64,000 nucleotides of DNA, from assembly GCF_030384885.1 (NCBI RefSeq), contig NZ_CP128613.1. The stretch is one strand, 5' to 3'. Under the pieces are notes generated by a model. It ran no database searches. It was not told where the DNA came from and saw only the letters and a program-made list of their open reading frames with translations. The number at the start of each line of letters is the position of its first letter. The stretch's first letter is position 1. Origin of the DNA: Escherichia coli. GTDB lineage: Bacteria > Pseudomonadota > Gammaproteobacteria > Enterobacterales > Enterobacteriaceae. The translations under genes and the position numbers were made by a program. This document shows, one piece after another, positions 15,983-18,957 of the stretch.

Positions 15983-16039
15983 TACCAATAACGGCGAGTA
16001 AGTAGTACGCATCTTACCTCTTTTTTAGAGATAACCATT

Positions 16040-17407
16040 ATGACAATAGAAAAACACGAAAGAAGCACTAAGGATTTGGTGAAAGCAGCAGTATCGGGAT
16101 GGCTGGGCACTGCGCTTGAATTCATGGATTTCCAGTTATATTCGCTCGGCGCAGCGTTAGTGTTTCATGAAATATTTTTTCCTGAATCATCAACGGCAAT
16201 GGCGTTAATTCTGGCAATGGGAACCTACGGTGCAGGTTATGTGGCGCGTATTGTCGGAGCATTTATTTTCGGCAAAATGGGCGACAGAATCGGGCGTAAA
16301 AAAGTGCTCTTTATTACCATCACTATGATGGGGATCTGTACCACCTTAATTGGTGTGCTGCCGACCTATGCACAAATTGGTGTGTTTGCGCCAATTTTGC
16401 TGGTGACGCTGCGTATTATTCAGGGGCTGGGGGCAGGCGCGGAAATTTCCGGTGCCGGTACGATGCTGGCGGAATATGCGCCAAAAGGTAAGCGCGGAAT
16501 TATCTCCTCATTTGTTGCTATGGGGACTAACTGCGGAACCTTGAGCGCAACGGCAATCTGGGCCTTTATGTTCTTCATTCTCAGTAAAGAGGAACTGTTG
16601 GCGTGGGGATGGCGTATACCGTTCCTGGCGAGCGTTGTCGTGATGGTCTTTGCTATCTGGTTGCGTATGAATCTGAAAGAAAGCCCGGTCTTTGAGAAGG
16701 TTAACGACAGCAACCAACCGACAGCAAAACCTGCACCTGCTGGTAGCATGTTCCAGAGCAAATCCTTCTGGCTGGCAACAGGGCTGCGTTTTGGTCAGGC
16801 TGGTAACTCAGGTTTAATTCAGACTTTCCTTGCAGGCTATTTAGTGCAGACGTTATTGTTTAACAAAGCAATTCCAACAGATGCATTGATGATCAGTTCG
16901 ATTCTCGGCTTTATGACCATTCCGTTCCTTGGTTGGTTATCCGATAAAATTGGTCGCCGGATCCCGTATATTATTATGAATACCTCTGCGATTGTGCTGG
17001 CGTGGCCAATGCTTTCTATCATCGTAGATAAAAGCTATGCCCCGAGCACCATTATGGTTGCACTGATTGTGATTCATAACTGTGCGGTGCTGGGATTATT
17101 TGCTCTGGAAAACATTACCATGGCAGAAATGTTCGGCTGTAAAAATCGCTTTACCCGGATGGCCATTTCTAAAGAAATTGGTGGTCTTATCGCTTCCGGT
17201 TTTGGTCCTATCCTGGCGGGTATTTTCTGCACCATGACGGAATCCTGGTATCCGATCGCCATTATGATCATGGCATATTCAGTGATTGGTTTAATCTCTG
17301 CGCTGAAAATGCCAGAAGTGAAAGACCGTGATTTAAGTGCACTGGAAGATGCCGCGGAAGATCAACCGCGTGTTGTAACAGCTGCGCAACCTTCAAGAAG
17401 TCTGTAA
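16040..17407 (+). CDS. ydfJ: MFS transporter YdfJ, intact 455 aa
   Basis: 12-TM MFS protein; in K-12 this gene is recalled as interrupted by prophage Qin, here it is uninterrupted and flanked directly by rspB and ydfI. Confidence 0.85.
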   Translation: MTIEKHERSTKDLVKAAVSGWLGTALEFMDFQLYSLGAALVFHEIFFPESSTAMALILAMGTYGAGYVARIVGAFIFGKMGDRIGRKKVLFITITMMGICTTLIGVLPTYAQIGVFAPILLVTLRIIQGLGAGAEISGAGTMLAEYAPKGKRGIISSFVAMGTNCGTLSATAIWAFMFFILSKEELLAWGWRIPFLASVVVMVFAIWLRMNLKESPVFEKVNDSNQPTAKPAPAGSMFQSKSFWLATGLRFGQAGNSGLIQTFLAGYLVQTLLFNKAIPTDALMISSILGFMTIPFLGWLSDKIGRRIPYIIMNTSAIVLAWPMLSIIVDKSYAPSTIMVALIVIHNCAVLGLFALENITMAEMFGCKNRFTRMAISKEIGGLIASGFGPILAGIFCTMTESWYPIAIMIMAYSVIGLISALKMPEVKDRDLSALEDAAEDQPRVVTAAQPSRSL

Positions 17408-17496
17408 ATCCTCCATCCCTTCTCTTACCGGAGAGGGGATTTTTTATTCATATAACAAAACATGCAGCTTGCCATATTTAAATTTAAGGAATTGTT

Positions 17497-18957
17497 ATGG
17501 GAAATAATTTGTTATCAGCAAAAGCGACGCTCCCTGTTTATGATCGTAATAACCTGGCCCCAAGAATTGTTCATTTAGGCTTTGGTGCATTTCACCGTGC
17601 GCATCAGGGCGTGTATGCCGATATTCTTGCTTCGGAACATTACAGTGACTGGGGATATTATGAGGTCAACTTAATCGGCGGCGAACAGCAAATTGCCGAT
17701 TTACAACAGCAAGATAATCTTTATACCGTTGCGGAAATGTCGGCCGATGCGTGGACGGCTCGCGTCGTTGGCGTCGTTAAAAAAGCCTTGCACATACAAA
17801 TAGATGGCTTAGAAACCGTGCTGGCTGCGATGTGTGAACCGCAAATCGCGATTGTCTCTCTGACAATCACCGAAAAAGGGTATTTCCACTCTCCGGCGAC
17901 CGGACAGTTAATGCTCGATCACCCGATGGTCGTTGCCGACGTGCAAAATCCCCACCAGCCGAAAACTGCAACAGGGGTGATTGTTGAGGCGCTGGCTCGC
18001 CGTAAAGCGGCAGGACTTCCCGCATTTACCGTCATGTCATGTGACAACATGCCAGAAAACGGTCATGTTATGCGTGACGTTGTCACTTCCTACGCGCAAG
18101 CTGTTGATGTAAAACTGGCACAATGGATCGAAGAAAACGTGACTTTCCCATCAACAATGGTGGACCGTATTGTGCCCGCAGTGACAGAGGATACGCTGGC
18201 GAAAATCGAACAACTTACCGGTGTGCGCGATCCTGCTGGCGTTGCCTGTGAACCTTTCCGCCAGTGGGTAATAGAAGATAACTTTGTTGCCGGACGTCCG
18301 GAATGGGAAAAAGCGGGAGCCGAACTGGTTAGTGATGTGCTGCCTTATGAAGAGATGAAGTTGCGCATGCTCAACGGCAGTCATTCATTCCTGGCGTATC
18401 TGGGTTATCTTGCCGGATATCAGCACATTAATGACTGCATGGAAGATGAAAATTATCGCCGTGCGGCACATGCCTTGATGTTGCAGGAACAGGCGCCGAC
18501 GCTGAAAGTGCAGGGCGTGGATCTGCAAAATTATGCGGATCGACTAATTGAACGCTACAGTAATCCAGCGTTACGCCATCGAACCTGGCAGATTGCGATG
18601 GATGGCAGCCAGAAATTGCCACAGCGGATGTTGGATTCTGTTCGCTGGCATCTGGCGCATGACAGCAAGTTCGATCTGCTGGCGCTGGGCGTCGCGGGTT
18701 GGATGCGTTATGTCGGTGGTGTTGATGAACAGGGAAATCCGATAGAAATCAGTGACCCACTGTTACCTGTTATTCAGAAGGCAGTACAAAGTAGTGCTGA
18801 AGGGACAGCGCGCGTCCAGTCATTGCTGGCAATTAAGGCGATCTTTGGTGATGATTTACCAGGCAATAGTTTGTTTACGACAAAAGTAACGGAAGCGTAC
18901 TTGTCTTTATTAGCGCATGGCGCGAAAGCGACCGTGGCGAAATATTCCGTGAAGTAA
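17497..18957 (+). CDS. ydfI: Mannitol/mannonate dehydrogenase-family oxidoreductase
   Basis: 486 aa; N-terminal NAD-binding fold; synteny. Confidence 0.85.

Follow-up and report, generated by a model that had tools for sequence, protein, structure and literature searches.

Here, we assign positions 16117-16135 of the window (the 64-kb stretch of Escherichia coli DNA analyzed here), within an intact ydfJ gene, to the unoccupied attB of lambdoid phages of the Qin/'PPydfJ' family, an assignment that we regard as close to certain. ydfJ is whole in the window because the strain carries no such prophage, and none of the results gathered contradicts this reading. The attachment site is not specific to Qin: ydfJ is used by a whole lambdoid family that includes effector-carrying prophages of EHEC as well as viable free phages. 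The insertion of Qin, the recurrent use of ydfJ as an insertion site, and the att sequence have all been published already. Thus, the intact ydfJ serves as an attB reference for Qin/PPydfJ-family prophages and has little weight beyond annotation; the sole possible addition made by the window is a rare attB allele, which is a candidate for reduced integration.

In the window, rspB, ydfJ, and ydfI are contiguous on the plus strand. rspB, which encodes a Zn-dependent oxidoreductase and borders the attachment site at what is, in lysogens, the integrase end, occupies 14962-15982 (ORF list and RefSeq annotation of a near-identical record); its BLAST identity to the rspB flank of K-12 is 97.9%. It is followed by a 57-bp spacer (15983-16039), by ydfJ with an ATG start at 16040-17407, by an 89-bp spacer, and by ydfI, a gene of the mannitol dehydrogenase family at 17497-18957 that forms the distal-side flank (ORF list, annotation, and BLAST). 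The interval 15983-17497 singled out in the original prediction does bracket ydfJ and both spacers, and its claim that nothing phage-like separates rspB from ydfI was borne out, with the two spacers, as given by the ORF list, being the only DNA between the three genes. Moreover, BLASTN with the whole of Qin as query gave no match to Qin DNA anywhere in the 64-kb window, and TBLASTN gave no match to the Qin-family integrase or excisionase in the same 64 kb. The 6 kb at 14000-20000 are ∼100% identical to the complete chromosome of E. coli strain 2013C-4282 (NZ_CP027579.1), in which the same contiguous order is annotated as rspA, rspB, YdfJ, and ydfI.

The ydfJ product, described in the original prediction as a complete 455-aa MFS transporter, is exactly that in the ORF list. 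It matches the MFS_1 profile (E=2.7e-37, 128.9 bits) as well as Sugar_tr (88.6 bits) and corresponds to RefSeq WP_000151245.1, "MHS family MFS transporter YdfJ". We conclude that it is full-length YdfJ of the MHS family, with a predicted role in transport. YdfJ orthologues from four other genera share 82-86% identity with it, and identity reaches 100% for a partial orthologue (174 aa, cut by a contig end) from a cryptic Escherichia species. A promoter scan of 15700-17700 returned no sigma-70-like site versus 3.4 expected from shuffled sequence, and a consensus scan placed a terminator-like hairpin followed by a T-run just 3' of the ydfJ stop codon (17415-17440, plus strand). The promoter-less spacer and the downstream hairpin are consistent with transcription of ydfJ from upstream, together with rspAB.

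Several lines of evidence support the assignment of the attB. First, comparison with K-12 places Qin inside ydfJ. In the MG1655 annotation, the order is ydfI, ydfJ (b1543, 427 aa), the "cryptic prophage Qin" (1632277..1652745), ynfP (36 aa), and rspB. Correspondingly, the BLAST alignment of the window to K-12 breaks in two, with 15002-16135 aligning to the rspB side as far as K-12 position 1652743 and 16117-18999 to the ydfI side from 1632291. Both K-12 flanks cover window positions 16117-16135, TGAATTCATGGATTTCCAG, which are nucleotides 78-96 of ydfJ and fall in codons 26-32 (L26-Q32). The K-12 alignment that the original prediction had proposed as a check thus puts the attB core in the 5' end of ydfJ, and the outcome that it had named as refuting, an intact ydfJ in K-12 with Qin located elsewhere, was looked for in K-12 and not found. 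At the protein level, K-12 b1543 corresponds to residues 29-455 of the YdfJ of the window (426/427 identical), while K-12 ynfP consists of MTIEKHERSTKDLVKAAVSGWLGTALEFMDF, i.e., YdfJ residues 1-31, followed by KSHAC from five phage-encoded codons. Qin of MG1655 shares both chromosomal position and core sequence with the window, which is its uninterrupted counterpart. The two differ at position 16123 of the core, which is C in the window and T in the rspB-side copy of K-12, and in that K-12 retains the integrase gene intQ as a pseudogene beside an IS2 element whereas the window has no prophage at all.

Second, in K-12 and six other lysogens, the sequence at 16117-16135 recurs at each end of the prophage. 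On the rspB side, the junction in K-12 and three other lysogens reads TGAATTTATGGATTTCAAG followed by AGTCATG; in those three, the junction is followed by an intact gene for a 426-aa integrase, a DUF1233 excisionase gene, and an exonuclease gene. On the ydfI side, the core reads TGAATTATGGATTTCCAG followed by TTATATTCG in all four lysogens examined, namely K-12 Qin, a Qin-like prophage, an O157:H7 prophage with DUF1076/NleG genes, and an nleC prophage, the phage arms of which are alike but not identical and the cargo of which differs. 

Third, the phage partner of the reaction exists in free form. An attP reconstructed from the two phage arms and then matched to free phage genomes is contiguous in four of them: PhiR42_1 (100%), mEp460_ev081 (99.5%), HannyBb (99.2%), and Tritos (98.7%). 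These phages supply the phage side of the exchange for which the window supplies the bacterial site. In PhiR42_1, mEp460_ev081, and HannyBb, the attP reads CACCTG-TGAATTATGGATTTCAAG-AGTCATG; the core variant of Tritos, ATGCATTTC, differs by one base. The core measures 18 bp in attP and one base more, 19 bp, in attB; aligned with the attB of the window, the free-phage core is the same at 16 of 18 positions, with a 1-base gap in addition. A repeat search of attP for arm-type sites returned weak, short two-copy families only. In the free phages, attP sits immediately downstream of the genes for the 426-aa tyrosine integrase and the excisionase. This integrase, encoded outside the window, has an Arm-DNA-bind_2 domain at residues 4-67 (E=3.8e-22) and a Phage_integrase domain at residues 201-392 (E=3.8e-18), and the neighboring gene was recognized as encoding a DUF1233 excisionase by profile match. 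An arm-binding N-terminus, a catalytic domain, and an excisionase are the architecture of lambda-type heterobivalent integrases, and by analogy the catalytic mechanism would be that of this class. The nearest solved structures are distant tyrosine recombinases only (E about 4e-9).

Comparison of attB, attP, and both junctions delimits the exchange. At the rspB-side junction, the TTT run is bacterial and the A at 16133 comes from the phage; at the ydfI-side junction, the TT run is that of the phage and the C at 16133 is bacterial. Read together, these sequences indicate that strand exchange must fall within 16122-16132. With the common T allele, attB and attP are perfectly identical over these 11 bp; in the window, perfect identity is confined to 9 bp at 16124-16132. 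The core also has an imperfect dyad symmetry, CTtGAAtT / AtTTCcAG, with 6 of 8 positions paired around a center at 16125 by our own reading of the sequence, and a lambda-like 7-bp overlap placed by this symmetry would putatively span 16122-16128. Crossover mapping with the Tritos core variant was uninformative, that variant being absent from every E. coli junction on either side. Two readings of the junctions were discarded along the way. The 1-bp "deletion" in the ydfI-side core of K-12 is not a K-12 mutation, the free phages carrying it natively in attP, and the T in the rspB-side copy is not phage-derived but the common bacterial allele.

Altogether, we suggest a model in which the integrase exchanges strands between attP and attB within their common segment TTATGGATTTC, at cleavage positions that we infer, this segment reading ATGGATTTC in the window owing to the C at 16123. 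Integration splits ydfJ such that the first 31 codons stay by rspB, fused to five phage codons (the "ynfP" of K-12), while the remainder from Met29 stays by ydfI, where it would be severed from transcription on the rspAB side. The expression of ydfJ would presumably be lost in lysogens. The phage also supplies no replacement N-terminus: at the ydfI-side junctions, an in-frame TGA lies directly before Met29 in all four lysogens examined. A substitute N-terminus running in frame from the phage arm ATGGGAAAAAACACCTGTGAATT... through a 19-bp core into ydfJ was considered and rejected, the phage-derived half of the core being one base shorter.

The empty state seen in the window is ordinary. We searched 5426 complete E. 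coli genomes with a 401-bp query centered on the core and found the site contiguous, i.e., empty, in 2007 (∼37%). All sampled split matches end at window positions 16132-16135 (query positions 207-210) or start at 16117 (query position 192). Of the 5426 genomes, about 3158 have a phage-type junction on the ydfI side and about 2675 have one on the integrase side, and the occupancy of the ydfJ site is about 58-63% of complete genomes. These figures fit the published Qin occupancy of 48% in 638 strains (PMC6379469), and at ∼60% of complete genomes ydfJ is among the lambdoid sites most often occupied in E. coli.

The original prediction went further in calling the locus the ancestral empty site, and this holds for the gene order but not for the core sequence. 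Siccibacter colletis and Enterobacter asburiae both have the gene order rspA-rspB-ydfJ-ydfI with a full-length ydfJ orthologue (82-83% amino acid identity), and the core sits 77 nt inside this gene; S. turicensis, Citrobacter koseri, and the cryptic Escherichia species have the same order over the stretch that their loci cover, and their core falls at the same codon position. Because this intact order occurs in other genera, it predates E. coli and is ancestral. By contrast, the core of the window is not literally the ancestral sequence: the C at 16123 is derived, and the outgroups have T. An exact scan for the 19-mer in one genome per species gave 18 matches, 6 of them enterobacterial and 12 by chance in unrelated taxa. 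We do not take these matches as a measure of conservation across genera, since the requirement for an exact match introduces ascertainment bias and 12 of the 18 arose by chance.

A cured history would look the same as a site that was never occupied, because excision by integrase and excisionase restores attB without a scar and the two cannot be told apart by sequence. The empty site could accordingly be secondary, an ancestor having carried a Qin-family prophage that was precisely excised by integrase and excisionase with restoration of ydfJ. With about 58-63% of complete genomes occupied, gain and loss must be frequent; many lysogens hold intact integrase and excisionase genes, viable free phages with a matching attP exist, and excision inside the identity segment is scarless. 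Nevertheless, we consider such a history improbable for the window. Positive evidence in its favor is lacking, the window has no prophage remnant, the six closest complete genomes with the rare C allele at 16123 are all empty, and outgroup genera have the same intact order. With the C-allele genomes empty and the outgroups intact, an inherited empty state is the simplest reading.

The allele at 16123 deserves separate consideration. The C is a rare, derived, synonymous SNP (Phe28, TTC); T (TTT) is the allele of the outgroups and of almost every E. coli genome. Two sampled empty sites differ from the window at this position only, both having T, and T is also found in the rspB-side junction of every lysogen and in all six enterobacterial matches. 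An exact 61-mer with the C allele occurs in 6 of the 5426 complete genomes, and all six are empty. Going by the dyad symmetry of the core, 16123 probably lies inside the 7-bp region of strand exchange. The T-to-C change is a small new detail that might lower integration, and we treat this as a candidate effect.

One alternative to a merely inherited empty site is that the attB of the window resists integration, the C at 16123 mismatching attP in the overlap in the manner of lambda "saf" mutations, and that the clade is empty for this reason. The SNP cuts the identity between attB and attP from 11 to 9 bp, a dyad-centered 7-bp overlap (16122-16128) would include it, and the six C-allele genomes are all empty. 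In addition, an integrase-side junction with C at 16123 was found in none of the 5426 genomes; however, with only ∼6 carriers of the allele this comparison has no power. The six genomes are related and form one clade, so they amount to roughly one phylogenetic observation and the association has almost no statistical weight; with 37% of genomes empty, it is also unremarkable. Moreover, the position of the overlap is itself inferred, and only two of the five placements of a 7-bp overlap within the 11 bp include 16123, while the crossover mapping based on the Tritos variant found no informative lysogens. We therefore think it unlikely that resistance accounts for the empty site. The fuller proposal that the C is a natural "saf"-like attB mutation, which makes a small clade refractory to Qin/PPydfJ-family phages while leaving YdfJ unaltered, is quite doubtful. 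An assembly artefact, the collapse or loss of a ydfJ prophage during assembly, can be dismissed with hardly any reservation: nothing specific favors it beyond the occasional misassembly of prophage-rich regions, whereas the junction lies within a 455-aa gene whose reading frame continues without a break, the structure is that of 2007 independent complete genomes and of other genera, and the near-identical complete chromosome NZ_CP027579.1 is equally contiguous.

The unoccupied attB identified here agrees with what has been described for this site. Ramisetty and Sudhakari (2019; PMC6379469) reported site-specific integration of Qin into the 5' end of ydfJ, which costs the gene its promoter and 28 codons. 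ydfJ is also a recurrent site of lambdoid insertion in strains W, B, Crooks, and SE11 (PMC3032704, PMC2608844). In the legend of their S7 Fig, Nakamura et al. (2021; PMC8112680) defined the att sequence of PPydfJ as 18 or 19 bp long, on the basis of a PCR amplicon of attP obtained from PPydfJ-R in O26 strain 11368 and with the empty ydfJ of O104:H4 C227-11 as the attB reference. The att sequence described in that legend agrees with the core that we derived independently (attP, 18 bp; attB, 19 bp). The PPydfJ prophages of O157:H7, O26:H11 strain 11368, O121, and O145 thus share with the site described here both the ydfJ locus and the 18/19-bp att. It also follows from the legend that the role of attB reference proposed for the window is already filled by C227-11. 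In EHEC, ydfJ harbors clusters of effector-carrying prophages that are involved in chromosomal inversions (PMC8112680, PMC8767318), and the PPydfJ prophages of EHEC and EPEC differ from the window in having T3SS effector cargo (nleC, nleG) and tandem clusters, neither of which is present here. Thus, the claim that the locus gives the precise Qin attachment region stands with respect to the position of the core but is too narrow with respect to its user, which is the whole lambdoid family.

Integration at ydfJ resembles that of two other K-12 prophages, Rac in ttcA and e14 in icd, which likewise use a tyrosine integrase and a specific site at one end of a protein-coding gene. e14 duplicates the 3' end of icd, while Rac, as at ydfJ, targets a 5' end and alters the N-terminus of TtcA (PMC6379469). 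In contrast to Rac, the ydfJ phages provide no replacement N-terminus, the TGA before Met29 closing the frame. 

Use of the site also appears to extend beyond E. coli. In Buttiauxella gaviniae, the sixth of the enterobacterial species with the 19-mer, ydfJ breaks off precisely at the left border of this sequence, and genes for a tail-spike protein and an acyltransferase lie upstream of the truncated gene. This arrangement indicates that a prophage uses the same site in another genus.

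The source of the window differs from the nearest complete genome, that of E. coli strain 2013C-4282 (NZ_CP027579.1). At its left end (window 1-5803, compared with NZ_CP027579.1 949510-955313, i.e., positions 1-5803 of the segment L015), the window carries the core-genome genes mlc, bioD, clcB, dmsD, ynfH, and ynfG, and these initial 5.8 kb form a single colinear alignment with other strains. By contrast, the matching region of strain 2013C-4282 contains prophage genes, encoding Ant, Ea22-like, Hok, and a large LPD38 protein, by which ynfG is truncated. Thus, at a second prophage site, which lies ∼10 kb from ydfJ, the window again lacks a prophage.

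The homopolymer in rspA at window 14609 is G7 in the window vs. G6 in NZ_CP027579.1, and that in dcp at window 21253 is T8 vs. T9. Because of these length differences, rspA and dcp of NZ_CP027579.1 are flagged as frameshifted in RefSeq; the window has an uninterrupted reading frame for each gene, of 404 aa for rspA and 681 aa for dcp when counted from the K-12 start codons. The homopolymer differences are probably sequencing errors in the NZ_CP027579.1 record. The window is further distinguished from that record by four SNPs and, at 40932, by an indel of 3 bp.

In K-12, the annotated 36-aa “protein YnfP” (ynfP, b4534; positions 28729-28839 of L001, the MG1655 Qin region) is a chimera, in which YdfJ residues 1 to 31 are followed by five residues (KSHAC) from the Qin P' arm. 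K-12 ynfP is a remnant of the insertion and not an independent gene.

Among the free phages, Tritos (OV696610.1) has the attP core TGAATTATGCATTTCAAG (about 1808-1825 of its locus, L012), which includes a G-to-C change within the identity segment, i.e., the stretch of perfect attB/attP match. This variant was found in none of the E. coli junctions, whether on the rspB side or on the ydfI side. In phage PhiR42_1 (L009), the attP core region ACCTGTGAATTATGGATTTCA (1008-1028) has a second copy, ACCTGTGCATTATTGTTTTCA (1135-1155), that matches at 18 of 21 positions, lies 127 bp from the attP core within the 3' coding end of int and there encodes ...WMSENNNAQV. This second copy may have arisen by chance, be left over from a duplication or serve as an accessory site for integrase binding.

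The ydfJ gene of Buttiauxella gaviniae (NZ_LXEP01000003.1; positions 1052-5141 of its locus, L032) is truncated precisely at the left edge of the 19-bp core, with alignment from residue 24 onward. Its 5' side is occupied by genes for a Tail_spike_N protein and an Acyl_transf_3 protein and by a weak Peptidase_S24-like ORF, and no Qin-type integrase was found within this locus. The locus appears to hold the distal end of another kind of prophage, one that uses the same attB in a different genus. Separately, 15 records of Stx2a-converting prophages (among LC727844-LC727872; hits H95-H109) match parts of the reconstructed attP with ∼90% identity and 61% coverage, in two pieces located at the record ends, suggesting that there are Stx2a phages with related att arms.
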